From Candidatus Firestoneibacteriota bacterium (GTDB lineage Bacteria; Oederibacteriota; D2-FULL-39-29; JBBTED01): 18,861 nucleotides of DNA. The DNA lies in the NCBI GenBank assembly GCA_038042445.1, contig JBBTED010000134.1:1-18861 (forward strand), given 5' to 3'. A program made the translations under genes and the position numbers. The notes under the pieces were generated by a model. That model had not been told where the DNA came from. It saw nothing but the letters and a program-made list of their open reading frames with translations, and did no database searches. This document shows, in pieces, positions 2,847 through 18,418 of the stretch (its first letter is position 1; every line of letters starts with the position of its first letter).

Positions 2847-3113
2847 TTAATTTTTAATTTTTTCTGCTTTTTCAGTAAGAATTACTACTTTATTTGGTAG
2901 AATTTCAGCAAACCCAGAATCTATTGAAAAATATAGAGTTTGTGTGTTATTCTTGATTTTTAACCTACCTTTTTTTAAAAAGGTTAGAAGGGGAGTATGT
3001 TTTGGTAATATACCTAATTCTCCATTTTGTCCTGGAATTATGACCATATCTGCTTTATCCTGTAATATTACAGATTCTGGAGTATATATTTCAATTTCAA
3101 ATTTATTCTGCAT
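2847..3113 (-). CDS. atpC: ATP synthase F1 epsilon subunit, short form (N-terminal beta-sandwich only)
   Basis: IEIYTPE...VIIPGQNGELGILPKHTPLLT.L..G...SGFAEI...V.ILTEKAE. Last gene of the atp operon; 88 aa. Confidence 0.93.
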   Translation of the reverse strand: MQNKFEIEIYTPESVILQDKADMVIIPGQNGELGILPKHTPLLTFLKKGRLKIKNNTQTLYFSIDSGFAEILPNKVVILTEKAEKIKN

Positions 3114-3187: not shown

Positions 3188-4704
<1,517 letters not shown>

Positions 4705-4736: not shown

Positions 4737-5609
4737 TTATTTCAGTGCTTCGGCTCCGCCAACTAAATCAGCAATTTCACGAGTAATTGTTGATTGTCTT
4801 GCTTTGTTGAATGCCAATGTTAAATCAGTTAGCATTTCATCAGCGTTTTTTGTTGCTTTGTCCATTATTGTCATACGTTGGCCTTGTTCACTTGCATTTG
4901 ATTCAAGTAATATCCTGTAAAATTGAAATTTAACATACTTAGGTACTAATTCATTCATAATATCATCTGAATTCGGCTCGTATAGATAATCTGTTTTTGA
5001 TTTCCTGTGCCAATTATCTTTTGCTTGAGGAAATATAGGTAATAACTTTTCTAAAACTATTTTGCTTTGCATTGCTGTTTTGAATTCATTATATAACACA
5101 TAGATTTCACCATATTCTGATTTTAAATAATGGTCAATTAATTCTTGTGCAATTTTTTCTGCACTGGAATAAGTTAAATTCTTAAAGACATCAATATAAA
5201 TGTTTTTTATCTTTTGGGTATGTTTTTTTAAACCATCTTTGCCTTTTTTACCAATAACAAATAAATTGATTTCAGAGTTTTCTTTTATTATTTCCTTTTT
5301 AGTAATGTAACCGACTGTTTTTTTTAAGAGATTTGAATTAAAACTACTGCATAATCCTTTATCTGAAGTTATTACTACTATCAGGATATTATTCGCTTGT
5401 TTTGAATACAAAAGTGGGTGGGTATGGGAAGAGCGATTTGAAATTTCTGCCATCAATTCTTTTAATTTGTTTGCATAAGGTCTGCTGGATAAAATGGCTG
5501 AATGTGCGTGTTTAAATTTTATTGCAGATACCATTTTCATTGCTTTGGTAATTTGCCTTATTTTTGTTGTGCTTTTGATTCTTCTTTTAATTTCCCGTGT
5601 TCCCTGCAT
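4737..5609 (-). CDS. atpG: ATP synthase F1 gamma subunit
   Basis: IKRRIKS...QITKAMKMVS, ITSDKGLC..FN, ASEQGQRM..MDKATKNA, NKARQ.TITREIADLVGGAEAL. Confidence 0.98.
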   Translation of the reverse strand: MQGTREIKRRIKSTTKIRQITKAMKMVSAIKFKHAHSAILSSRPYANKLKELMAEISNRSSHTHPLLYSKQANNILIVVITSDKGLCSSFNSNLLKKTVGYITKKEIIKENSEINLFVIGKKGKDGLKKHTQKIKNIYIDVFKNLTYSSAEKIAQELIDHYLKSEYGEIYVLYNEFKTAMQSKIVLEKLLPIFPQAKDNWHRKSKTDYLYEPNSDDIMNELVPKYVKFQFYRILLESNASEQGQRMTIMDKATKNADEMLTDLTLAFNKARQSTITREIADLVGGAEALK

Positions 5610-5620
5610 AATTTTTTCCC

Positions 5621-7174
5621 TTATGGTTTGTCTTTTTCTACCAAACCATATTTTTCCTTGAATTTTTGCTTGAATACTTCAATTATAGGTTTGAATGTTG
5701 CAGTTAATTGTTCATCAATATCTTTTTTTGTAAGGATTTCCTTAAAAATCTTAGGATTTGTTTCTTCTATATAAATTAAAAATTCTGCTTCAAAATTTTT
5801 AAGTGAAGGAGTGGGGATATCGTCCAAATATCCTAATGTTGCAGCAAAAATAATTGCAATTTGTTTTTCAACAGGTATGGGTTTGTATTGATCCTGTTTT
5901 AAAAGTTCCACCATTTTCTCTCCACGTGTTAGCTGTTGTTCTGATGATTTATCTAATTCAGCACCAAACTGAGCAAATGCGGCTAATTCCTGATATTGTG
6001 CAAGATCCATACGTAATCTTCCTGCTATTTTTTTCATTGCTTTTATTTGTGCACTTCCGCCAACTCTTGAAACGGATAAACCAACATTAACTGCAGGTTT
6101 TATTCCTGCGTAGAATAAACCTGGTTCAAGGTATATCTGTCCATCAGTTATTGATATTACATTTGTCGGTATATATGCAGATATATCACCTGCCTGAGTT
6201 TCAATTATGGGTAACGCAGTTAAAGAACCGCTTCCACGTGTTTCAGATAATTTTGCAGCTCTTTCAAGAAGACGTGAATGCAAATAGAAAACATCACCAG
6301 GATAAGCTTCACGGCCTGGTGGTCTGCGTAAAAGCAAAGATAATTGTCTATATGCTACTGCATGTTTTGATAAATCATCGTATATTATTAGAGCGTGCAT
6401 TCCTGCATCTCTGAATTCTTCACCCATTGCACATCCTGTATATGGTGCTATATATTGAAGTGGGGCAGGTTCTGATGCAGTTGCAGATACAACTATAGTG
6501 TGGTCCATTGCATTGTTATCTTCTAAAGCTTTAACTACTTGTGCTACAGTAGATCTTTTTTGTCCTATTGCTACATATATACATATAACTCCTGTATTTT
6601 TTTGGTTTATTATAGCATCAATAGCGATTGCAGTTTTTCCTGTTTGTCTATCACCTATTATTAATTCACGTTGACCTCTGCCTATGGGAATCATTGAGTC
6701 AATAGCTTTTATACCTGTTTGTAAAGGTTCTTTTACAGGTTGACGTTCTATTACCATTGGCGCACGTGCTTCAATGGGTCTTTTCTTAGTTGTAAGAATA
6801 GGTCCTTTGCCATCAATAGGTTTTCCAATAGCATTAACAACTCTACCTATGAGTTGCTTGCCTACAGGAACTTCCATTATTTTGCCTGTGCTTTTTGCCA
6901 AATCTCCTTCTTTTATTGCTTTATCGTTACCAAGTAAAATACATCCTATGACGTCACGTTCTAAATTTAAAACCATACCATATACTTCTCCTGGAAATTC
7001 TATTAATTCACCTGCCATAGCATTTGGCATTCCATAGAGTTGCGCAATTCCGTCTCCAACTTGTATTACTACTCCTACATTTTCAGAGCGGACTTTAGAC
7101 TCGTATTTTTCTATCCGTTCTTTCAAAATAGAAGTTATTTCATCGGGTTTTGCCTGAAATTCTTTATGTGACAT
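5621..7174 (-). CDS. atpA: ATP synthase F1 alpha subunit
   Basis: [64 protein letters not shown]. Confidence 0.99.
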
Positions 7175-7270: not shown

Positions 7271-7807
7271 CTAATTATTAAGTAATATGTTTTTCAATTG
7301 TGCAAGTTTGTTTTTTATACTACCATCAATAAGTGTATCTTTTATTCTAACAGTTATACCGCCTATTAGTGAATTGTCTATTTCTGTTTGTAAAATTATA
7401 TTCTTGCCTGTAAAAATTTCTAATTGGATTTTTAGTTTTTTTATCAGATTCTCTTCTATAGGAAATGTTGAATTAACAGTTGCATCTACAGTATTGTTAT
7501 GTTTTTTAATAAGATCTTCGTACTCGTATAAAATTTCAAATAGTATATGCAATCGTTTTTTTTCTAAAAGTATGAGTAAAAAATTTATAATTGTTTCACC
7601 ATAGGAGTTAAAGTTTGATTTTATAAGAGAAATCTTATCTGCTTTTTGTATTATGGGGTTATCAAATATTTTTATCTGTTCATTTTTACCCAAAATTGCT
7701 TCGGATATTTTTTTTAACGAATTATTTATTTTGTCAAGCGATTTAAGTTTTTCAGCTTCTTCAAACAGAGCAAGTGCATATTTTTGAGCAATTGCAAGTC
7801 TTCTCAT
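7271..7807 (-). CDS. atpH: ATP synthase F1 delta subunit
   Basis: IAQKYALALFE, NFLLILLEKKR, D.SLIGGI.VRI.DTLIDGSIKNKL. ATGA overlap with atpF. Confidence 0.96.
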   Translation of the reverse strand: MRRLAIAQKYALALFEEAEKLKSLDKINNSLKKISEAILGKNEQIKIFDNPIIQKADKISLIKSNFNSYGETIINFLLILLEKKRLHILFEILYEYEDLIKKHNNTVDATVNSTFPIEENLIKKLKIQLEIFTGKNIILQTEIDNSLIGGITVRIKDTLIDGSIKNKLAQLKNILLNN

Positions 7808-8337
7808 TTCTTTTCAGCCCCAGTATTTTTTTCAGTCTTACTTCCAGTATTCCTTTCAGTCTCAATCTGAGTGATAAAATCTTCTACAAGTTTTTTATTT
7901 GTTTCTTTATTGAGGTTTTGTTTTAATATTTTTTCTGCGGCAGACATAGAAATATTAATTATTTCATCTTTTATTTCTTTTAATGTTTTTTCTTTTTCCA
8001 TCCCAAGCTTTTCTTTTGTTTGCAGTATGGTTTGCTTGGCTTCTTCACGTGCAGTTGAAATTATTTCTTCTTTTATTATTTGGCCTTCTTTTATCGCTTG
8101 TCTGGTTAATTCCTGTAATTTTACTTCAATAGAGCCAAGTTCTTTTTCGTATTTTTGTTTTAATTCATTCATTTCAGTTTTAAATTTTTCTGCATTTTCT
8201 ATATCTGATTTTATTTTTTCGCTTCTTGTTTCCATAATCTTGGTTAATCTCTTATAGAATATTTTCCATAGGAGTACTAATCCAAGTAGGAAAGTCGCAA
8301 GCTGCACCAATAAAATTTTTAAATCTATATCAACCAT
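7804..8337 (-). CDS. atpF: ATP synthase Fo subunit b
   Basis: N-terminal TM helix (LLVQLATFLLGLVLLWKIFYK), conserved R.EKI, long charged coiled coil, AAEKIL. Positioned between atpE and atpH. Confidence 0.94.
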   Translation of the reverse strand: MVDIDLKILLVQLATFLLGLVLLWKIFYKRLTKIMETRSEKIKSDIENAEKFKTEMNELKQKYEKELGSIEVKLQELTRQAIKEGQIIKEEIISTAREEAKQTILQTKEKLGMEKEKTLKEIKDEIINISMSAAEKILKQNLNKETNKKLVEDFITQIETERNTGSKTEKNTGAEKK

Positions 8338-8348
8338 AGTTTTTATTA

Positions 8349-8376
8349 TGTCATTCCCACGAAAGTGGGAATGACA
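8349..8376. repeat. Perfect 12-bp-stem hairpin, a collapsed member of the GTCATTCC/GGAATGAC repeat family
   Basis: TGTCATTCCCAC-GAAA-GTGGGAATGACA between atpE and atpF. Confidence 0.8.
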
Positions 8377-8390
8377 GTGGACAAAAATTG

Positions 8391-8756
8391 TTATTTGGTA
8401 ACGGCTTTTTCAGAAGAAGATTTTAATTTTGACAAATCTTTTTCTAACTGTATTTTTTGAATCTCCAGTTGTATAACTTCAACTTCAGATTTCATCTTTT
8501 CTGTTTCAAGAAAAGGTTTGGCTAATGGATTAGCGAATAAAATGATTATAGATATAACCAATACATAAATGGTTAATGATTCTATAAATGCCAGTCCTAT
8601 AATTAAAGTTGTAGTAATTGGACCTGTTGCTTCTGGTTGTCTTGATATTCCTTCCATTGCTTTTGATAATGCTATGCCTTGTGCAAGAGCTGTAGCTATA
8701 GTTCCTATTGCTATTGCACCACCTGCTACTATTACTGATATTACAAATATACTCAT
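8391..8756 (-). CDS. atpE: ATP synthase Fo subunit c with C-terminal coiled-coil extension (121 aa)
   Basis: Start re-placed at ATG 8756 because AAAGGAGG lies 5 nt upstream. Two TM helices, loop RQPEA, carboxylate in [13 protein letters not shown], then 43 hydrophilic residues. Confidence 0.95.
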
Positions 8757-8777
8757 TATTTCCTCCTTTGAAAACAA

Positions 8778-8865: not shown

Positions 8866-9591
8866 TTAATTGTGTTCTTCTGTTGCTGTAGCTCCGGCAA
8901 TATATATTATAGATAAACTTGTAAATACTAATGCTTGTATAAAACTTACAAGAGTTCCAAGAAGAATTATTGCAGGCCTTAATATTAGAGGAACGAGGAG
9001 CATAATTTTGCCAATAACTCCGGGTACATCTAAGAATACAATAAAAAGAAAGCCAAGCATTCCAAGCAATATTTCTTTAGCCATTATATTCCCGAATAAA
9101 CGTATTGATAATGATAAAGGTCTTGCGAGTTCACTTATTATATGGAGTGGGAAAAACAATGGTGCAAGCCAGTATGGAGGTCCCATAAAATGTTTAATAT
9201 AACCCCAAAGCCCTTTTTTCTTAATGCCTAAGTAGTGCGTGGAAAAAAATACAACGAGTGCTAATGCGACAGTTGTATTAATGCTGGAAGTTGGAGATTT
9301 AAATCCGGGTAGTAAACCTAACAGATTGGAGAAAAATATAAAAAGAAATATAGTTAAAAATAAAGGCGTGTATTTTATTCCTTCTTTACCTATAGTACCT
9401 TCACTTAAAGCGCTTATTTTTTCGAATCCCCATTCTAATATGTTTTGTAGTTTGCCTGGTATTATTTTGACTTTCATAGTTGCAATTGCGCATAAAATAA
9501 TAATAGCTGCCATTACAACCCATGACATTGTTATTATTTCAGGGACACCTGGCAAATGTAGTAATATTGGACCTTCTAAGCCTTCACTCAT
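8866..9591 (-). CDS. atpB: ATP synthase Fo subunit a
   Basis: PGKLQN..E, FIFFSNLLGLLP, PTS.INTT.ALAL, ELARPLSLSIRLFGN (essential Arg164), IQALVFTSL...YI. Confidence 0.97.
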   Translation of the reverse strand: MSEGLEGPILLHLPGVPEIITMSWVVMAAIIILCAIATMKVKIIPGKLQNILEWGFEKISALSEGTIGKEGIKYTPLFLTIFLFIFFSNLLGLLPGFKSPTSSINTTVALALVVFFSTHYLGIKKKGLWGYIKHFMGPPYWLAPLFFPLHIISELARPLSLSIRLFGNIMAKEILLGMLGFLFIVFLDVPGVIGKIMLLVPLILRPAIILLGTLVSFIQALVFTSLSIIYIAGATATEEHN

Positions 9592-11003
9592 TTTAGTAGC
9601 AGTTTTTTATTTTCTTCTTCAACTGCTTTTTTGTATTCAGTTATTAAAGTTTTTATTTCAGCATCATCAGGAATATTTTTTACCAATGCTACTAATTCAT
9701 TTGATGTTGAAATAACTTTTCCCAAATTATCTAAAGTAAATATAAGTTTTCCAATGTATTGTCCATTTTGTCCTGCTTGTACTAAAAGCACATTTTTTAT
9801 TTTCTCAGGTTGTTTTAATAGGGTTTGAGAGTGGCCACCAACTATTACATCAATTCCATCAATATTTTCAGCTAATTTTCTGTCTTCATCATATCCTGCA
9901 TGTGTTACTAAAATTGTTAAATTAACCTTGCCTTTGATTTCCTGCAAAATTTCAGAAATTCTTTCTTTTGGGTCTGAGAATTTTAAATTTTCTTTTATTG
10001 CTTTTGGAAAGAAAGTAAAAGCTTTTGGTGAAACTATACCAATAACAGCAACTTTGTATTTCCCAATTTCTTTAATTATATAGGATTTTCCCAGTGGTCT
10101 GCAATTAGTTAGTGTGCAGACTTCAAAATTAGCGGCTACGAGTGGGAGATTGTTGGTTTGGGCTTCTTTCACAATAAAGTCTGTTCCTAAAATTAATTCC
10201 TGGTCACCTGGAACCATTACGTCGTATTTAAGTAAATTAAATGCTTTCGATACATATTTTGCTTTAAGTTCGTCTTCTCTTGCAGAAAAAAAATCACCAG
10301 AATCTACAAGTATGTATGATGTATTTTCTTTTCTGAATTCTTTTAAAAATGTGGCACGTCTTAATAAACCACCAAATGGATTTTCCGGACATTCACAGGA
10401 TTCAAGATGGCCATTTGTGCTATTAGTATATAAAAGTGTAATTTCATTTTTTGCTTTTTCAATTTTGGGAGTTTGGACCACTGCTTCTTTTTTTAATTCT
10501 GTGATTAAGCTTTCTAATTCTTCTACTAATTTAGGGTCATAGCCATCGAAATGTTTTTTTATTGTTCCATTCTTTCCTATTACAAAAAGTTGTGGAACAG
10601 TTGCTCTGTTATTTTCTACAACCTTAAACCATTTTGCCAAACGTATTCCATAAGGGTCCAATAAAACCGGTATTTTGAATTTGTGTTCCTGAATATAAGG
10701 AGCAACTTCTTCTTTGCCTTTGGGATCTATACTTACCAAACGCACTTTTACGCCTTTACCTTCATACTTCAAATATATTTCCTGAAGTAGTGGTATTTCA
10801 TTAAGGCAGGGTTTACATTGGGTATCAAAAAATGAAAGTATTACTATGTTTCTACTTGATTCATCGCCAAGTAAAGCATTAAGACTTTCTGCGCCACTAT
10901 CTAATTTGTCTAATTTAAAAGAAGGGGCTGGATCATTAATATTAAATGCATATACATTTATTGCAAAACTTACTAAAAAAACTACTGCAAATACTTTTTT
11001 CAT
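9588..11003 (-). CDS. Exported fusion protein: TlpA/ResA-like thioredoxin (CKPC) + UshA-like (5'-nucleotidase N-terminal, calcineurin-like fold) domain with CxC motif
   Basis: Start re-placed at ATG 11003 (AAGGTGA SD), giving signal peptide MKKVFAVVFLVSFAINVYA. APSFKL...SFFDTQCKPCLNEIP.L...PVLLD...VPQLFVIGKNG. Then LLYTNSTNGHLESCEC...GGLLRRAT...VDSGD...PGDQE...AAN...THAG...IDVIVGGHSQ...VQAG..G.YIGKL. ATGA overlap with atpB. Confidence 0.85.
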   Translation of the reverse strand: MKKVFAVVFLVSFAINVYAFNINDPAPSFKLDKLDSGAESLNALLGDESSRNIVILSFFDTQCKPCLNEIPLLQEIYLKYEGKGVKVRLVSIDPKGKEEVAPYIQEHKFKIPVLLDPYGIRLAKWFKVVENNRATVPQLFVIGKNGTIKKHFDGYDPKLVEELESLITELKKEAVVQTPKIEKAKNEITLLYTNSTNGHLESCECPENPFGGLLRRATFLKEFRKENTSYILVDSGDFFSAREDELKAKYVSKAFNLLKYDVMVPGDQELILGTDFIVKEAQTNNLPLVAANFEVCTLTNCRPLGKSYIIKEIGKYKVAVIGIVSPKAFTFFPKAIKENLKFSDPKERISEILQEIKGKVNLTILVTHAGYDEDRKLAENIDGIDVIVGGHSQTLLKQPEKIKNVLLVQAGQNGQYIGKLIFTLDNLGKVISTSNELVALVKNIPDDAEIKTLITEYKKAVEEENKKLLLK

Positions 11004-11106
11004 ATTTTTCACCTTTTTTATAATGATTAACAACATATATATAACAAATTAATTGTTTTAAAGCAACATTTTTATGTAATTGGGTCAATTACGGGTGTAT
11101 GATTTG

Positions 11107-11283: not shown

Positions 11284-11469
11284 ATGAAAAGCTTATTAAA
11301 GTTAGCTAAGCATGATGAAAAAAAGGAAATAGAATTTGAAATGAATTATTTGGCATCTTTAACTGTAGAACAGCGATTCAGAATGCTTTTTCAGAAATCT
11401 GATGAAATGAAAAAAGTACTTTTACGAAATGGGCATAGAAAAGCTTTTGAAATTATTAAAAGAAAATAA
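11284..11469 (+). CDS. Small helical protein, probable partner of the downstream nucleotidyltransferase
   Basis: 61 aa, charged, contains Y.ASLTVEQRF. Overlaps the NTase gene by 41 bp, an arrangement typical of two-gene TA-like modules. Confidence 0.65.
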   Translation: MKSLLKLAKHDEKKEIEFEMNYLASLTVEQRFRMLFQKSDEMKKVLLRNGHRKAFEIIKRK

Positions 11470-11872
11470 GGTTAAGTTTGTGATTATAGGTGCAACAGCT
11501 TTTCCTGTTTATGGATACGCGAGAGCTACTCTTGATACTGATATATTTATAAAACCTGAGAAACAAAATGCTTCAAGTGTATTAAAAGCATTGAAGGAGT
11601 TTGGGTATGATGTGACAGATGTTACTGTTGAAGATTTAATTTCTAAAAAGCTATTAATAAGACAGTATACTGTAGAAACAGATGTTCATCCTTTTGTTAA
11701 AGGTGTAACATTTGAAGAAGCGTGGGAACATAAAGTTAAAGCGAAAATTGGGAAAACCGAAGTATTTTTTGCTTCATTGGATGATTTGATAAAAATGAAA
11801 AAAAGTGCAAATCGTCCAAAAGACAAAGAAGACTTAAAATATTTAGCAAAAATAAAAAAAACTATCAAATAA
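11429..11872 (+). CDS. Small nucleotidyltransferase-fold protein (DUF6036/AbiEii-like)
   Basis: FVIIGATA...YGY.RATLDTDIFI, and C-terminal SLDDLIKMKKSANRPKDKEDL. Confidence 0.8.
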   Translation: MGIEKLLKLLKENKVKFVIIGATAFPVYGYARATLDTDIFIKPEKQNASSVLKALKEFGYDVTDVTVEDLISKKLLIRQYTVETDVHPFVKGVTFEEAWEHKVKAKIGKTEVFFASLDDLIKMKKSANRPKDKEDLKYLAKIKKTIK

Positions 11873-11930
11873 ATAATATTACTATGCAAATTAGATAATA
11901 CTATAAAACTCGTTGAAATGGAGGTTTTAA

Positions 11931-13589
11931 ATGGAATATATAACTGCTACAAATAAATCAATAAGTCAGCTTATGAATGAATTTAAGGACGGACTAATAG
12001 ACGTACCGGAAATACAACGGGATGTTGTTTGGAAATCAGATCAAATAAAAGATCTTATTGATTCTATAAGTAGGGGTTTTCCATGTGGTTCTTTGATTTT
12101 ATGGGAACCACGAGAAAAAGATAAAAACTTTTTGAGGTCAATAATACGTCCTGAAAGACTAGAAAAAAATGCACCTCTACCAAAATATTTTATTCTTGAT
12201 GGGCAACAAAGATTAACAGCATTATCAGTTGTATTATTGAAGAGAGAACTATTAAAGAATCTTCTAAATGAACTAGAGGAAGAAATGCCTTATATTTACA
12301 TCAATCTTAAGAGATTTCCAAAAGAAATTGAAGCAAGAAGTTCTGCCAGTCATGATATCCATTGGGTATTATATAATAGTTTATTTGATGGAACATTAGA
12401 GGATACTGGGGAATATAAAAAATTAGATGATGCTATGAAATGTCGTATAAAAAAGCATGTACAAAATATTTTTGATTATCAATTTCCTGTTCAAATTATA
12501 CATGACCGAAATTATGCTGATGTTTCTGAAATATTTACGAGAGTCAATTCTCAGGGCACTCCATTAACTGGGGCAGAAATACACTTGGCAAAAATAGTAC
12601 CTCATTGGCCAGGAATAACACGAAAATTTCGTGAGTACCGTAAAGAACTAAGAATAAATTATTATGATTTAGACTTGAATTTTTTAATGAGAACGATTAC
12701 TGCAATTGAGTGTAATGTTCCTCAAATTAAAAAATTATCTGAAAAAATATCAAAGGATCATATTAGTAAAAACAGATTAAATGCAACATGGGAAAAAGTT
12801 AAAAAATCAACAAACAGACTAATAAAAATACTAAAAAAAGAACTTTACTTAGACAAATCAAAATATTTTACATCGAAAAATACTTTAGTTCCATTAGTCT
12901 ATTATATTTCAACAAAGAAAAGAAGTGTAGCGATAGGAAATATAAAGAAATTTTTTCCTTTGTCTCAGCTATCTGAACATTATGGTGGTGCGGCAGAATC
13001 AACATTGCGAAAGGATTTCAAAACCCTTACTGAAGCTTCTAAACCACGTTTTGGTCTTATTGAACTAGTTAACAATGTCAACTATGAATCACGTCAATAT
13101 TATCGAGGTTTAAAAATAAAAGGTGAAGATATATCTGGAATACCATCAAAGAATGTACTAGTGTTATTTATGTATGTGTTAATGAAGAGAAACAAAGCTA
13201 CTGATTGGGGTAGTAGAAACAGACTCTCATTAGAAGAGATTGAACCGAGAAATACACAATTGCATCATATATTTCCATCTAACCTTATGCTGAATGATAA
13301 GAATGCTCTTAAAAGGTACACAGAAGAGAAGGAATGTTCACAATCAGAGTATAGAGAAGCTGTAAATGATATAGCGAATATTACTTTCTTGTCAAAAGCA
13401 AAAAATATTGCTATTGGTGATGTAGCTCCATCGCAATATCTAATAAATGAAACAACACGTGAAATACGAAAAGCACATTTTATCCCAGAAAAGCCAGAAT
13501 TATGGAAAACCGAGAATTATATCGATTTTTTAGAAGAGCGAAAAAGGTTGATAGCTGAAGCAATTACAAGATTTATAAAAAATTTATAA
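11931..13589 (+). CDS. DUF262 (ParB/Srx-like) + C-terminal DUF1524/HNH-like protein; GmrSD-like modification-dependent nuclease
   Basis: VPEIQRDVVW, GSLILW, ILDGQQRLT, IFTRVNSQGTPL. C-terminal LHHIFP...IANITFLSKAKN..IG. SD GGAGGT. Confidence 0.85.
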   Translation: MEYITATNKSISQLMNEFKDGLIDVPEIQRDVVWKSDQIKDLIDSISRGFPCGSLILWEPREKDKNFLRSIIRPERLEKNAPLPKYFILDGQQRLTALSVVLLKRELLKNLLNELEEEMPYIYINLKRFPKEIEARSSASHDIHWVLYNSLFDGTLEDTGEYKKLDDAMKCRIKKHVQNIFDYQFPVQIIHDRNYADVSEIFTRVNSQGTPLTGAEIHLAKIVPHWPGITRKFREYRKELRINYYDLDLNFLMRTITAIECNVPQIKKLSEKISKDHISKNRLNATWEKVKKSTNRLIKILKKELYLDKSKYFTSKNTLVPLVYYISTKKRSVAIGNIKKFFPLSQLSEHYGGAAESTLRKDFKTLTEASKPRFGLIELVNNVNYESRQYYRGLKIKGEDISGIPSKNVLVLFMYVLMKRNKATDWGSRNRLSLEEIEPRNTQLHHIFPSNLMLNDKNALKRYTEEKECSQSEYREAVNDIANITFLSKAKNIAIGDVAPSQYLINETTREIRKAHFIPEKPELWKTENYIDFLEERKRLIAEAITRFIKNL

Positions 13590-13654
13590 AAAAATACAAA
13601 AAAGTAAGTTGTAAATTGATTAGTTTTTATGATAAAAGTATACAGGTAAAAAAT

Positions 13655-14113
13655 ATGAAATTTTTAGAAGTGCTTAAATCAAGAAATGGCAAAATATTAG
13701 ATATTGATTTGTTAGAGCCATTGGTTGAAAATGTGTGTCAAAGATTTAAAATCCAGCTTTTATACCTATTTGGTTCTTATGCAACAAAGAATATCTCTAA
13801 ATTAAGTGACTTGGATATTGCGTTTTTTGCAAGCGATGATATTAAATTAGAGAAATGGGGTCAATTTTTAGGAGAACTTCAAGATATCTTTGAAGAGGAA
13901 GCTATAGACCTTGTAGATTTAAAAAATGCACCTCTTCCTTTGATACATAGAATATTAAGAGATGGCAAATGTCTTTATGCAATAAATTTGGAAAGCAGGA
14001 TAAATTTTGAAACCAGGTCTGAAACATTTTATCAAGATACAAAATATTTACGTATGGAGTACTTTGATGCTTTACTAAGGAGAATAGAAAATGGTACCTT
14101 TGGGTGTAGATAA
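13655..14113 (+). CDS. mntA: MNT (minimal nucleotidyltransferase) antitoxin of a HEPN/MNT type VII TA system
   Basis: LFGSYATKNISKLSDLDIA matches GSx10DxD; IDLVDL..AP..L...I.RDG. ATG 13655 preferred over TTG 13616. Confidence 0.88.
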   Translation: MKFLEVLKSRNGKILDIDLLEPLVENVCQRFKIQLLYLFGSYATKNISKLSDLDIAFFASDDIKLEKWGQFLGELQDIFEEEAIDLVDLKNAPLPLIHRILRDGKCLYAINLESRINFETRSETFYQDTKYLRMEYFDALLRRIENGTFGCR

Positions 14114-14525
14114 AGAAAAACTATTTCTTCAATTAAATCGATTAGAAGAATTATTAATACAATTAGAAAATGTGAAAAAAAGTTTATTAGCTAAAGAAAA
14201 AGAGTTTATATTAATACCTGCAATTGAAAGATTATTACAAATATCTATAGAGGAATGTATTAATATAGGCAATCATATTATTTCAGGCTTAATGCTTAAG
14301 AGAGCAGATAGTTATAAAGAAGTGTTTGCTATTTTGAGAGAAGCAGATATTTTATCAAAAGATACAGGTGCGGAAATGGAATCTTTTGCTAAATTCAGAA
14401 ATAAACTCGTGCATTTATATTGGGTGGTTGATAAAGAAGAGCTATATGCAAAACTTGAACAAAAAAATATTATAAAAAGTTTTGTCATAGAAATAACAAA
14501 GTACTTGAATAAAAAATTACCATAA
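14091..14525 (+). CDS. hepT: HEPN (DUF86) RNase toxin
   Basis: ERLLQISIE.CINIGNHII, and RNKLVHLY matching Rx4HxY. Overlaps mntA by 23 bp. Confidence 0.88.
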   Translation: MVPLGVDKEKLFLQLNRLEELLIQLENVKKSLLAKEKEFILIPAIERLLQISIEECINIGNHIISGLMLKRADSYKEVFAILREADILSKDTGAEMESFAKFRNKLVHLYWVVDKEELYAKLEQKNIIKSFVIEITKYLNKKLP

Positions 14526-15625
14526 TGAAAAATCTATTAATTAGTACTTTTTTGATTGCCATCTTTTCTTCTGCTGGGTTCACTGCAGATAAAGAAGGAA
14601 TTGTTGTGAAAAATACGGATAGGGATACTTATTTTTACTCCTGTAAATATGTAAAGGCTGATGGGTTAAAAAAAGTATTAGAAGAATTGGTTTCTCCTGT
14701 TGGAAGAGTTGTTTATTCTGAAGAGTTAAATATGTTGGTAGTTTCCGATGTCCGGGAAAATATTCCTGCAATAAAAGAATATATTAAAAATTTAGATATA
14801 TATATTCCACAAGTGTTAGTAGAAGCAAAAATCGTGGAACTTACTACAGATTCTGATTTTGAATATGAAATAGCACATTCTTTTACATCAGGGTCAGATA
14901 CAAGTGTATTACAGGATAAAACAAAACTGAATTTGCCGACTCCTGGTGCTAATCCAAATACTAATGCAGGCGGAATTTTTTCATTAAGAACTTATACTAA
15001 TAATGCGAATATGTTAGATAATTATTTGCGGGTGTTAGTTACAAATGGTAAAGCCAAGATTTTGTCAGCTCCGAATCTTGTTGTGGATAAAGGAACAGAA
15101 GCGAGTATTATTACAGGTGAAGAAGTGCCTGTGCAGTCTGCAACTGTGGTGTCAGGTTCAGTAAGCACAACTACTCAGTTTAAAAAAGTAGGAGTGAAAT
15201 TGAGAGTTGTTCCTATTAATATAACTGAGGATAGTGTTAAATTAGAGATAAATCCGGAAGTTTCTACAGTTACAGGTTATACTAATTCTGGTTCAAGTGG
15301 AGTTTCCAATCCTATAGTAGCGCTTAGAAATACAAATACAGTACTTACTGTAAAAGATGGAGAAATGATAACAATTGGCGGTTTAATGAGAAAAGAATCA
15401 CGAGATGTAGTAAAGCAGATTCCAATATTGGGCGATATACCGTTAATTGGTCTTTTATTTAGAAGTGTACGGGAACAGACTGTAAATACTCAGCTTATGT
15501 TTTTCTTGAAAATCAAAATTTTAAAAGAGGGAATAGTTGATGGAGTTCAAATTTTCAGGCCTGATGAAAAGCAAAAAGAAATTGATAAAGAAATAGAAGA
15601 CATTGAGAAAAAAATTAAAGAATAA
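14525..15625 (+). CDS. Minimal outer-membrane secretin (signal peptide + single N3-like domain + secretin domain)
   Basis: KYVKA..LK.VL...N.LVVSD...I..LD...PQVLVEAKIVE, GKAKILSAP.L, A.I.TGEEVP, VGVKLRVVP, V.DGE.ITIGGL, signature IPILGDIPLIGLLFRS. Confidence 0.9.
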   Translation: MKNLLISTFLIAIFSSAGFTADKEGIVVKNTDRDTYFYSCKYVKADGLKKVLEELVSPVGRVVYSEELNMLVVSDVRENIPAIKEYIKNLDIYIPQVLVEAKIVELTTDSDFEYEIAHSFTSGSDTSVLQDKTKLNLPTPGANPNTNAGGIFSLRTYTNNANMLDNYLRVLVTNGKAKILSAPNLVVDKGTEASIITGEEVPVQSATVVSGSVSTTTQFKKVGVKLRVVPINITEDSVKLEINPEVSTVTGYTNSGSSGVSNPIVALRNTNTVLTVKDGEMITIGGLMRKESRDVVKQIPILGDIPLIGLLFRSVREQTVNTQLMFFLKIKILKEGIVDGVQIFRPDEKQKEIDKEIEDIEKKIKE

Positions 15626-17105
15626 AATTATCGCACTGGCTATATTAACTTCTATAATCATAATAGCAGTAGTTTTTATCTCTAAATCCAAAACACAAAA
15701 TACAAAAGTTGATGAAAACAACAAATTTTTCAATGCAGAAAAAGGTGACCTTCCTGTATTAATAGTTCAGACAGGTCAGCTTAAAGCCTCTCAATCCTAT
15801 AAAATTAAAGCTCCAATTATTCCGGGTATATCACGTGATTTAAAACTTGAATGGATAGTATCTGAAGGCTCTAAAGTAAAAAAAGATGAAGTGATTGCGA
15901 AACTTGATAGGGAGCCGATTCAACAGGATATAGATAATTTGACTGCTGAACTTGAATCAGAGAAGGCATTATTGTCTATTGAAAAAGAAAATTTTAAAAT
16001 TCAGGAATCGCAAAACATTTTAAATTTAAACACTGCAAAAATTAATCTGGAAAATTCAGGAAATGAATTAAAAAAATATAACACTCTGGAGTTACCAACA
16101 CAAATTAATGAATTTGAAGTAAAAACAAATGCTGCAAAAATCAAATATGAAGAAGCACAAAAGAATTTAAAAAATCTGCAGCAACAGGCAGAAAGCCAGT
16201 TATTTGTTGAAAGCTCGCAGGAGGCAGATACAAAAAAGAAAGTTGAAGATGCAAAAAAAATAGTGGAAAATGCTAAAACATTATTAGAATCCACGGAATT
16301 GGAATATAAAATTTTTAAACGTTACACGTCTCCTGAGCAACTTGGAAATAAAATGACTGCTTATGAAAAAGCAAAAATGGATTTGGAAAGAACAAAAGTT
16401 ACGTCAGGGTCATCTATTATACAAATACAAGAAAGAATACGACAAAAGGAAAGAACAATAAAAGATAAGGAGACAAAATCCAAAAAATCAAAAGAATATC
16501 TGGAACAGCTTATACTAAAAGCGCTTGTGGATGGCTTAGTTATTTATAAGGATGTAGATTTGCCATATTGGAGAGCTTCAACAGATGAAATGAAGGAAGG
16601 TAAGATAGTAAGACCAGGAGAGGTAATAATTACTATACCGGATTTATCTGCTTATGAAGTATCTGTGGAAATTGGAGAAGAATCCAGAAGTAAATTAAAA
16701 GAAAAAATGGATGGTACAATTAAAATTGAAGCTATTCCTGATTTGATATTACATGGAACTATAAAAACTATAAGTAATTTGGCAAGGTCGTCAGCTGCAT
16801 GGGATCCATCTTCTCCAAAGGTTTATGATATTATATTTACACTTGGAGACTGTAATGAAGAAATGAAACCCGGTATGTCTGCAAAAGTTGAAATTCTTAT
16901 AGAAAAATTAAAAGATGTTTTATATATACCAATAGAAGCAGTTTATGAATCTGAAGATGAAAAATATTGCTATGTAAAAACTTCAGCTGGACCTGAAAAA
17001 AGAATTATAAAAGCAGGAAAAAGTAATGACAGTTTTATTGTAATTATAGATGGTTTAAAAAAAGGCGAGACTGTTTATCTCTTTAACCCAATAAAAAAAG
17101 ACTAA
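15603..17105 (+). CDS. Membrane-fusion / periplasmic adaptor protein (HlyD/MacA-like) with long coiled-coil hairpin
   Basis: N-terminal TM anchor, lipoyl halves V.EGSKVKKDEVIAKLD and LKALVDGLV, PGEVIITIPDLS, MKPGMSAKVEI, VLYIP.EAV, GLKKGETV. TTG start overlaps the secretin end. Confidence 0.9.
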   Translation: MRKKLKNKIIALAILTSIIIIAVVFISKSKTQNTKVDENNKFFNAEKGDLPVLIVQTGQLKASQSYKIKAPIIPGISRDLKLEWIVSEGSKVKKDEVIAKLDREPIQQDIDNLTAELESEKALLSIEKENFKIQESQNILNLNTAKINLENSGNELKKYNTLELPTQINEFEVKTNAAKIKYEEAQKNLKNLQQQAESQLFVESSQEADTKKKVEDAKKIVENAKTLLESTELEYKIFKRYTSPEQLGNKMTAYEKAKMDLERTKVTSGSSIIQIQERIRQKERTIKDKETKSKKSKEYLEQLILKALVDGLVIYKDVDLPYWRASTDEMKEGKIVRPGEVIITIPDLSAYEVSVEIGEESRSKLKEKMDGTIKIEAIPDLILHGTIKTISNLARSSAAWDPSSPKVYDIIFTLGDCNEEMKPGMSAKVEILIEKLKDVLYIPIEAVYESEDEKYCYVKTSAGPEKRIIKAGKSNDSFIVIIDGLKKGETVYLFNPIKKD

Positions 17106-17128
17106 AATTATCAGATTATTTCATAATG

Positions 17129-17151
17129 GTAGCCGCAGGCTTTAGCCTGCG
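17129..17151 (+). repeat. Single copy of the GTAG REP
   Basis: GTAGCCGCAGGCTTTAGCCTGCG, identical to 7198-7220. Confidence 0.9.
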
Positions 17152-17161
17152 AAGAAAAACA

Positions 17162-18418
17162 ATGGATTTGACATTTACAGTAAAATTAGCACTTGAAAAT
17201 CTATCGTTGCACAAATTGCGTTCTTTGTTGACAATGCTTGGTATAATATTTGGAGTGGCAGCACTTATTTCAATGTTATCTATTGCTGCAGGAGCTGAAA
17301 AGAAGACTTTGGAACAAATAAAAACATTAGGGATTGAAAATATAATTTTGAAAAGTATCAAGCCACTTGGAATTAAAAAAACAACAAATAGAGATGTAGA
17401 AAATATTGTTTATGGAATAAAAAGAAAGGATATGAATAGTATAAAAGAAGTTTTTTCAAAAGTTAAAATGGTAGTTCCAATTAAAGAGTTAAATCAGCAA
17501 ATTTACTCCAATTTTCAAAAAAAAGATATAAAAGTTATTGCTACAACAATGGATTATTTGGAAGCCACTAAATCTAAAATTGAAAAAGGAAGATTTTTTA
17601 ATAATATTGATACTACTCAGAATAAACGAGTATGTGTGTTAGGAACAAAAGCAAAACAACAGCTTTTTTCATATCGTGTGTGTTTGGGTGAGTATATCAA
17701 AATTTCAAAAATTTGGTTTAAAGTAATAGGCATTTTTGAAAATACAGCAGACACAAAATCAGCAACGGGTAATGACAGCAACAATTATATTTATATACCA
17801 TATTCCACTGCTATAGTTAATTTTGGAGACAGATATACAAAGCAGGAATCTGGGGTTTCTGAAAGTTCAACAATTGAGATAGATCAATTATATATAACTA
17901 TGCAGTCTTCGGACTATATAGAAGCGGCTGCTGATAGGTTGAAAAGTTATATGCAAAAAATACACAAAAAAACTGATTATGAAATAGTTATTCCATTAGA
18001 TTTATTAAGACAAAAAGAAGCAACACAAAGAACTTTTAGTATTGTTATGGCTACTATTGCCGGTATTTCATTGCTTGTAGGTGGAATAGGAATAATGAAC
18101 ATTATGTTGGCGAATATATATGAAAGAACAAAAGAAATTGGAACAAGAAGGGCATTAGGTGCAAAAAAAACAGATGTTTTAATACAATTTTTAACAGAAG
18201 CTATTTTACTTACAAATGTGGGTGGAATTATAGGAATATTTTTAGGTGTAGGAATAGCATATCTTGTTGTATTTTATGCCAAATGGCCTGTAATTATTCA
18301 ACCATATAGTATTATTTTATCCTTTTTAATTTCTGGAATTATAGGAATAGTATTTGGAACTTATCCAGCATACAAAGCTGCAAATCTAAATCCAATAGAC
18401 GCATTACGATCAGAGTAG
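17162..18418 (+). CDS. MacB/FtsX-family ABC transporter permease (no fused ATPase)
   Basis: KLRSLLTMLGIIFGVAALI, periplasmic core with GRFF...VCVLG, GGIGIMNIMLANIYERTKEIGTRRALGA...QFLTEA, YPAYKAANLNPIDALRSE. Start placed at ATG 17162. Confidence 0.93.
   Translation: MDLTFTVKLALENLSLHKLRSLLTMLGIIFGVAALISMLSIAAGAEKKTLEQIKTLGIENIILKSIKPLGIKKTTNRDVENIVYGIKRKDMNSIKEVFSKVKMVVPIKELNQQIYSNFQKKDIKVIATTMDYLEATKSKIEKGRFFNNIDTTQNKRVCVLGTKAKQQLFSYRVCLGEYIKISKIWFKVIGIFENTADTKSATGNDSNNYIYIPYSTAIVNFGDRYTKQESGVSESSTIEIDQLYITMQSSDYIEAAADRLKSYMQKIHKKTDYEIVIPLDLLRQKEATQRTFSIVMATIAGISLLVGGIGIMNIMLANIYERTKEIGTRRALGAKKTDVLIQFLTEAILLTNVGGIIGIFLGVGIAYLVVFYAKWPVIIQPYSIILSFLISGIIGIVFGTYPAYKAANLNPIDALRSE

Follow-up and report, generated by a model that had tools for sequence, protein, structure and literature searches.

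A conserved, predicted helical tail on F-type ATP synthase subunit c in a Candidatus Firestoneibacteriota bacterium and its relatives

In the c-ring of F-type ATP synthases, the loop of each subunit faces the cytoplasm, where it binds γ and ε, and both ends of the chain are on the membrane side opposite F1. The canonical c-rings closest to the protein described here, i.e., that of Spirulina (2WIE) and the chloroplast c14 rings (6FKF and 6TQJ), have the same hairpin fold, RQPE loop, and TM2 carboxylate. The closest solved c-rings showed 51–52% identity to its residues 1–78, with an rmsd of 1.7–2.0 Å over 75–77 columns. However, solved c chains stop within 1–5 residues of query position 78–79, whereas the protein of the window, i.e., the whole stretch of 18,861 nucleotides that was analysed, runs 43 residues further. 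In the phmmer search of PDB, c-ring matches ended at query residues 71–79 in 22 of 23 cases and at residue 65 in one.

The nearest precedent among solved rings is that of Pseudomonas aeruginosa, in which a short C-terminal extension reaches the adjacent c and caps the ring at the periplasmic interface (PMC12796488; 9O1A). This subunit has 85 aa in total and caps the ring from outside, and, unlike the protein of the window, it carries no 30-residue heptad helix. The two proteins gave a weak match (E = 1e-4) in the hairpin only. In Tetrahymena, a four-helix bundle of subunit k seals the P-side mouth below the c-ring, as described in PMC7583250. Like the tail, the mitochondrial P-side sealing subunits are helical and would lie directly under the c-ring, away from F1. 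However, they are separate, non-rotating stator polypeptides, whereas the tail helix is part of every rotor subunit.

Type-3 coiled coils, i.e., α-cylinders, α-sheets, and designed cross-α nanotubes, share with the tail a/d and c/f seams on opposite faces of the helix. TolC is the comparison case for the α-cylinders, and the original Type-3 paper is said by later papers to be that of Walshaw and Woolfson in 2001. The tail differs in that its repeat is short and its seams are staggered, and in that a ring in the membrane would hold its helices parallel and act as their template.

The atpE gene and the atp operon

The F1Fo operon of the window is complete, in the order atpBEFHAGDC, and its gene atpE is flanked by atpB and atpF (Table 1). 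The longest form of the ORF covers 8391–8777, from a TTG at 8777. However, the ATG at 8756 is the likely start, because GGAGG lies 5 nt upstream and homologues begin at the equivalent Met. With this start, the LFANPL end is residue 78 and residues 79–121 are the extra tail, which together with the TAA stop (8391–8393) occupies exactly 8391–8522. The first-pass annotation had described a c subunit that continues for about 43 residues past LFANPL, and both the translation and the homologues (see below) bear this out.

Table 1. Coordinates of the atp genes and of the parts of atpE in the window; for the seams, protein positions with the fraction of strongly hydrophobic residues among 108 sequences
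Feature	Position	Strand	Evidence
atpE, F-type ATP synthase subunit c with tail	8391..8756	minus	121 aa (P0001), Pfam, TIGR01260
Canonical c hairpin, residues 1–78	8523..8756	minus	AlphaFold2, invariant columns, solved c-ring matches
Linker, residues 79–87 (AKPFLETEK)	8496..8522	minus	alignment, AlphaFold2
Conserved tail core, predicted helical, residues 88–112, two hydrophobic seams	8421..8495	minus	alignment, AlphaFold2
Low-confidence C-terminal end, residues 113–121	8394..8420	minus	pLDDT, alignment
a/d seam	d88 (0.71), a92 (0.94), d95 (1.00), a99 (0.94), d102 (0.84)		occupancy, 108 sequences
c/f seam	c94 (0.97), f97 (0.92), f104 (0.97), c108 (0.94), f111 (0.93)		occupancy, 108 sequences
Putative ribosome-binding site of atpE, GGAGG	8762..8766	minus	read from sequence
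Perfect 11-bp inverted repeat in the atpE–atpF gap; 12 pairs when folded as RNA	8350..8375	minus	RNA fold
atpB (subunit a), upstream neighbour of atpE	8866–9591	minus	PF00119, 204 bits
atpF (subunit b), downstream neighbour of atpE	7804–8337	minus	Pfam, ORFs
atpH	7271–7807	minus	Pfam, ORFs
atpA	5621–7174	minus	Pfam, ORFs
atpG	4737–5609	minus	Pfam, ORFs
atpD	3188–4615	minus	Pfam, ORFs
atpC	2847–3113	minus	Pfam, ORFs

The hairpin was recognized as an F-type subunit c by profiles, by the two-helix fold with its RQPE loop and carboxylate, and by the position between atpB and atpF. The Pfam family PF00137 (ATP-synt_C) matched residues 9–72 only (52.8 bits, cut-off 24), and TIGR01260 matched with 51.5 bits (cut-off 43.95). 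The parts of the hairpin are a helix at residues 3–39, the loop R39-Q40-P41-E42, a second helix at 41–75 with the carboxylate E59, and the end F74-A75-N76-P77-L78. R39, Q40, P41, and E59 were invariant in the alignment. A c subunit usually has about 70–90 aa and ends soon after helix 2, whereas this protein has 121 aa. N-ATPase subunit c, whose operon carries atpR/atpQ and lacks delta, was considered and rejected, i.e., TIGR03322 gave 78.4 bits against a cut-off of 130.85, and the operon of the window has a delta gene (PF00213), whereas a search for AtpR in it found none.

The tail itself was not recognized in the searches made. No matched stretch of the NCBIfam models went beyond residue 84. 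No counterpart of the tail was seen among the listed Foldseek matches in PDB, all of which were c subunits over 64–79 columns (rmsd 1.2–2.3 Å). The tail as a query in the ESM Atlas gave no usable feature match, and its structure matches were generic single helices. In the full-text literature that was searched, which includes few subscription journals, no bacterial c subunit with a long helix at its C-terminus was found to be described. Judged from its sequence, the protein is a true F-type subunit c that carries what appears to be a new appended module.

The hairpin also holds residues that bear on ion specificity. Q26, E59, S60, and Y64 (within 8523–8756) were invariant in 108 homologues, and we take them to correspond to four Na+ ligands of the Ilyobacter tartaricus ring, i.e., Q32, E65, S66, and Y70. 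The fifth ligand of that ring, T67, presumably corresponds to a Leu in subunit c of the window. The ATP synthase of the window may be Na+-coupled.

The inverted repeat between atpE and atpF was predicted to fold into an RNA hairpin of -21.4 kcal/mol (z = -6.5), and 0 of 200 shuffles were as good. It is one of two related GC-rich hairpins (GTCATTCCC[A/G]C...) in the gaps of the operon. The other lies at about 4680–4704 on the minus strand, between atpG and atpD. These hairpins may set differential mRNA stability or subunit stoichiometry. The operon is continuous in the window and in the Kiritimatiellia loci. In five loci of Firestonebacteria (L001, L002, L004, L008, and L080), no atpG or atpD was found over at least 3 kb downstream of atpA, and their operon seems to be split.

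AtpI was missing in the window, and the first-pass annotation had suggested that the tail might replace this assembly factor. Near atpB of the window, neither atpZ nor atpI was found (best tblastn match E = 0.84). However, relatives with the same tail carry these genes. Among the loci tested, an AtpZ gene (PF09527) precedes atpB in all 6 of Firestonebacteria, in 7 of the 14 of Verrucomicrobiota/Kiritimatiellia, and in 8 of the 10 without the tail. AtpI-like ORFs often adjoin atpZ, and PF03899 was above its cut-off in L024, L032, L036, L041, and L042. Because the tailed relatives keep atpZ and AtpI-like genes, substitution for AtpI is not supported as a general explanation.

At the place where relatives carry atpZ and atpI, the window has an ORF (9588–11036, minus) with a signal-peptide-like N-terminus, encoding a fusion of an AhpC/TSA redoxin and a calcineurin-like phosphoesterase. 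Its stop overlaps the start codon of atpB (9588–9591), and it matched only weakly, in one locus (L027, 26% identity). On the plus strand, a small defence or toxin-antitoxin-like cluster was found at 11429–14525. Its genes encode a DUF6036/DUF2204 nucleotidyltransferase, a GmrSD-type restriction endonuclease (552 aa), and a pair of a Polbeta-type nucleotidyltransferase and a HepT-like RNase. On the other side of the atp operon (20–2803), genes for an NfeD protein, a lone response-regulator receiver, a bactofilin, and an M23 peptidase were identified.

Distribution and conservation of the tail

The homologue search gave 165 matches at E ≤ 1e-3 among 236 candidates, and 120 of them were listed. 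The tail was present in 111 of these 120. Of the listed homologues, 108 were aligned, and all 108 were tailed, with a tail length of 40–56 residues (median 44). Longer tails were found in P0030 and P0109, and the fragment P0117 was also tailed. Nine listed homologues were without the tail, i.e., three of 91 aa (P0093, P0106, and P0111), three of 79 aa (P0116, P0118, and P0119), and three with a signal-like N-terminal extension instead (P0114, P0115, and P0120).

The 91-aa proteins end 13 residues past ANPF. They showed 63–72% identity over an aligned part that covers 67–68% of the query, i.e., the highest identity of the aligned hairpin among the listed matches; the tailed P0002 showed 70% over 88% of the query. 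Several of the closest relatives, among them P0002, P0093, and P0268, are known from metagenomes only. With no tail on these 91-aa relatives, at least one related lineage either can dispense with it or never acquired it. The first-pass annotation had asked whether close relatives stop right after the ANP[LF] end, with the tail as non-conserved read-through. The tail is not such read-through, as the count of tailed homologues shows, but these three relatives do end shortly after the hairpin.

In a scan with one genome per species, at least 599 stretches matched, and the best 80 were kept. The tail was looked for in 44 of those 80 loci (L001–L043 and L080); the remaining 36 were mostly Clostridia, in which the match reached only query residues 72–78. 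The tail was found in 29 of the 44, i.e., in 10 of 10 loci of Candidatus Firestonebacteria and 19 of 19 of Verrucomicrobiota/Kiritimatiellia. The other 15, from Elusimicrobiota, Goldiibacteriota, Spirochaetia, and other bacteria, were without it, and L042 has a different ending of 18 residues.

The nearest tail-less relatives, i.e., Elusimicrobiota, Goldiibacteriota, and Spirochaetia, carry a signal-peptide-like N-terminal extension of 40–50 residues on subunit c. It was seen in P0114, P0115, and P0120, in loci L029, L031–L033, L036, L038–L041, and L043, and in many matches of the representative profile search. In these Elusimicrobiota, Goldiibacteriota, and other relatives, which are the nearest tail-less ones on the tree (L029 and L031, for example), the addition likewise sits at a periplasm-facing terminus. 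However, it is hydrophobic and signal-peptide-like, not a C-terminal heptad helix as in the window.

When 1.84 billion representatives were searched exhaustively with the profile, 4551 c-type matches were obtained at E ≤ 1e-3. Among the best 150 of these, just 5 extended beyond profile position 100, and one of the five, P0172, was a plastid-type c fusion. Because so few reach this far, the tail family is a handful of clusters at 50% clustering. Among the 20 representative sequences inspected, P0133 was a third divergent tail-bearing type. A second tail family was looked for among other long c subunits and rejected, i.e., the longer ones looked like plastid-type genes fused to downstream sequence or junk. 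Many database proteins (P0121–P0144 and others) were tandem fusions of 2–13 c-type hairpins. One of them, P0122, has 968 aa with 13 matched stretches and might form the whole rotor ring from one polypeptide. Fused c-type rotors occur in some archaea.

Pooled pN/pS was 0.374 in the tail and 0.133 in the core, over 12 hand-picked, non-overlapping pairs. The dN/dS of all 435 pairs was set aside, as only 210 had a finite dS and the distant pairs were saturated. Thus, the tail is under purifying selection, about three times weaker than that on the hairpin. The comparison of homologues proposed in the first-pass annotation, i.e., of selection and heptad phase, therefore came out in favour of a conserved tail, with the phase conserved as well.

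In a tree of concatenated AtpB and AtpA, built without subunit c from 34 rows and 739 columns, the 21 rows with the tail formed one clade with a support of 97/96. The window was sister to Firestonebacteria with weak support (90/68), and the nearest named AtpB was also from Firestonebacteria (62% identity). On the simplest reading, the tail was gained once and then either persisted through a split at phylum level or travelled with the operon. The tree of AtpB only, with an unresolved base, showed three tail changes, of which the starred branches force only one (P0270 was weakly linked to P0111).

Two-seam heptad pattern and candidate structures

From the alignment of 108 rows, AlphaFold2 gave a model with a mean pLDDT of 89.5 and helices at residues 3–39, 41–75, and 80–120, i.e., it predicts the tail as one helix over residues 80–120. 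The mean pLDDT was 87–94 for the 10-residue blocks covering 71–110 and fell at the tip, to a mean of 63 for residues 111–120 and 46 for residue 121. The model breaks the helix at residues 76–79, and a Gly or Pro stands at position 81 in 94 of the 108 homologues. No Pro was found among the 1944 cells of positions 88–105 in the alignment. The tail of the window has 17 charged residues among its 43, and the net tail charge in the family ranges from -1 to +4, i.e., near zero to slightly positive. The tip of the homologues (residues 113–121) is rich in A, K, P, and T. Of the 108 tail-bearing proteins, 104 end in Lys, 3 in Arg, and 1 in Gln, and that of the window ends in Lys (8394–8396).

The terminal Lys brought a Braun-lipoprotein-like coiled coil into consideration. 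Braun lipoprotein has an N-terminal signal peptide with a lipobox, forms a free-standing trimeric coiled coil, and is linked to peptidoglycan through its C-terminal Lys. This candidate was rejected, as there is no lipobox and the tail forms the C-terminal end of a rotor subunit in the membrane. A covalent link to the wall would presumably block rotation.

The heptad register was set with a at position 92, and the occupancy of each position was taken as the fraction of strongly hydrophobic residues among the 108 sequences. Two hydrophobic seams were recognized, i.e., a/d and c/f (Table 1), and the b, e, and g positions were hydrophobic in only 0–0.08 of the sequences. In the protein of the window, all 10 strongly hydrophobic residues of 88–111 lie outside the 10 b/e/g positions (hypergeometric P = 5e-4 for one register, about 4e-3 when seven registers are allowed). 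The stripes named in the first-pass annotation fall on real heptad positions, i.e., L97/L104/L111 on f, M88/I95/I102 on d, and V92/I99 on a. However, its longest stripe also took in L83 and S90, which are not conserved hydrophobic positions.

The seam centres are 1.5 residues apart, which is about 154 degrees by our own arithmetic. The interior angle of a regular polygon is 144 degrees at N = 10 and 156 degrees at N = 15. The angle of the seams fits polygons of at least 8 helices, i.e., the size range of c-rings, and not bundles of 2–6. The tail has the Type-3 heptad of hydrophobic a, c, d, and f with polar b, e, and g. According to PMC6175849, this repeat (hphhphp) is tied to large helical barrels and not to small bundles. 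In designed assemblies, according to PMC7814010, offset a/d and c/f faces pack heterotypically with both neighbouring helices. However, c101 and a106 are polar in the tail, so the full repeat spans little more than one heptad. The seams are also axially staggered, with a/d at 88–102 and c/f at 94–111. With the helices at equal height in a ring, the two seams would overlap only at about residues 94–102.

The tail is probably periplasmic by analogy with the known topology of c-rings, in which the RQPE loop is cytoplasmic and the termini are on the opposite side. At 14525–18418 (plus), the window holds a gene for a short secretin (366 aa), with HlyD-like and MacB/FtsX-type genes after it. A secretin with a MacB/HlyD-type system, as read from these genes, fits an envelope of two membranes.

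It could well be, and this is our tentative preference, that the periplasm-facing tails zip side by side into a collar which turns with the c-ring and has a structural role. The module would consist of a short Gly/Pro linker, an amphipathic helix of 25–30 residues, and a flexible tip that ends in Lys. Once the ring is assembled, neighbouring c subunits would have their C-termini side by side. The two near-opposite seams would let each tail contact two neighbours instead of joining a bundle of 2–5 helices. From this seam geometry and the neighbouring C-termini, we infer lateral zipping, in which the a/d seam of one tail would pack on the c/f seam of the next. The result would be a single-walled, parallel helical collar about 4 nm long, coaxial with the c-ring, polar inside and out, and rotating with the rotor. 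Such a collar would tie neighbouring c subunits together on the periplasmic side, cap the periplasmic rim, and help ring assembly, stability, and a fixed ring size. We favour this role, i.e., a structural clamp for assembly, stability, and size of the ring, but only tentatively.

Some observations count against the collar, among them the polar positions and staggered seams given above and the three tail-less relatives of 91 aa. The rate of change in the tail is about threefold that of the core. A charged tail of 40–56 residues would have to cross the membrane, whereas E. coli subunit c uses a YidC-only route according to PMC2172039. A complex prediction of four copies of the tail alone (residues 79–121, 108-row alignment, without controls), with a score of 0.02 against a mark of 0.42, speaks neither for nor against self-association; four free tails differ from the real case, i.e., a ring of 8–17 copies templated by the membrane.

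The first-pass annotation had proposed a rotating helical barrel, which might fix the ring size, plug the lumen, or couple rotation to a periplasmic partner. The barrel idea gains support from the conserved Type-3 a/c/d/f pattern, which that annotation did not have. A closed, parallel α-cylinder of about 10–15 helices that hangs into the periplasm and spins with the c-ring is possible but rather doubtful. The ring would set the size of such a cylinder, or the cylinder that of the ring, and it might act as a spinning shaft through which rotation is reported or passed on to components of the periplasm. The positions that would line the collar or cylinder (g at 91, 98, and 105) are mostly Lys or Gln in the Kiritimatiellia-type tails and Glu in the window. 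Because the sign of the charge differs between subclades, there is no conserved lumen chemistry. K96–E100 as an e-b' salt bridge between helices was considered and dropped, as it would equally be an ordinary i/i+4 bridge within one helix.

The strongest alternative, which we consider unlikely, is that the tails form no collar and instead serve in docking or regulation by binding another element of the periplasmic side, e.g., loops of subunit a, the N-terminus of subunit b, or an unlinked protein. The conserved seams could equally be buried against such a partner. The tail might, for example, serve as a rotational brake in this clade, in which the inhibitory C-terminal helices of ε have been lost. 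The ε of the window has 88 aa, with PF02823 over residues 5–83, i.e., only the N-terminal β-sandwich without the inhibitory helices. Short ε of this kind (86–101 aa) was found in 11 of 11 tail-bearing loci in which ε was found, against long ε (131–149 aa) in 11 of 13 complete tail-less loci. However, the tail-less L029 and L041 also have a short ε, and since the tail-bearing rows are one clade, the link amounts to at most one or two evolutionary events. No extra gene was found conserved in the operons of the tail-bearing loci, so a dedicated periplasmic partner, if any, is not encoded there. Two opposite seams on 8–17 identical rotating copies also suit self-association better than one fixed partner.

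Two further readings are improbable. In one, the tail would rest on the periplasmic face of the membrane, around or under the ring, as an interfacial helix that organises lipids, e.g., by holding the lipid plug of the lumen. The Gly/Pro linker after ANPF permits a sharp turn, and the near-neutral to slightly positive tail charge agrees with this reading. Lipids in the c-ring with sealing subunits below are known in mitochondrial enzymes (PMC7583250). However, an interfacial helix requires a single hydrophobic face, whereas the tail has two opposite seams, parted by always-polar b/e/g positions rich in Glu and Lys.

The other, which we rate no higher, gives the tail a role in biogenesis or turnover, i.e., as a handle for insertion or assembly or as protection from proteases of the periplasm, and the tail may be flexible or removed in the mature ring. 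The final residue, Lys or Arg in 107 of 108 after an Ala/Pro-rich tip, speaks for it, and some related c subunits manage without the tail. Tail-specific proteases prefer apolar C-termini. However, this reading leaves a heptad-phased helix with two seams, kept across two phyla, unexplained.

Non-functional read-through or an annotation artefact is very improbable. In its favour, an open frame of 43 codons has a chance of about 3% at 31% GC (own arithmetic), and other long database c subunits are gene-call fusions or junk (P0172, P0191, P0214, and similar), but the tail in 111 of 120 listed homologues, its pN/pS of 0.37, and its conserved heptad phase and terminal Lys contradict it.

Meaning for the rotary motor

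Subunit c is among the smallest and most conserved parts of rotary ATPases, and in every solved F-type example searched it stops where the membrane meets the periplasm. A helical module conserved on the outer side of the rotor would add a new structural element to the motor. Its biogenesis is a puzzle, as a charged tail of 40–56 residues would have to cross the membrane, against the model of YidC alone in E. coli. The tail is also a natural test case for the Type-3 rule of large barrels in coiled-coil design. If the α-cylinder were true, it would be a new architecture of the F-type rotor and, among parallel helical barrels of natural proteins, unusually large. The tail-bearing lineages are mostly uncultured and probably anaerobic. 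The size of the ring sets the ratio of ions per ATP, so a module that clamps neighbouring subunits would bear on the bioenergetic cost of ATP in these bacteria.
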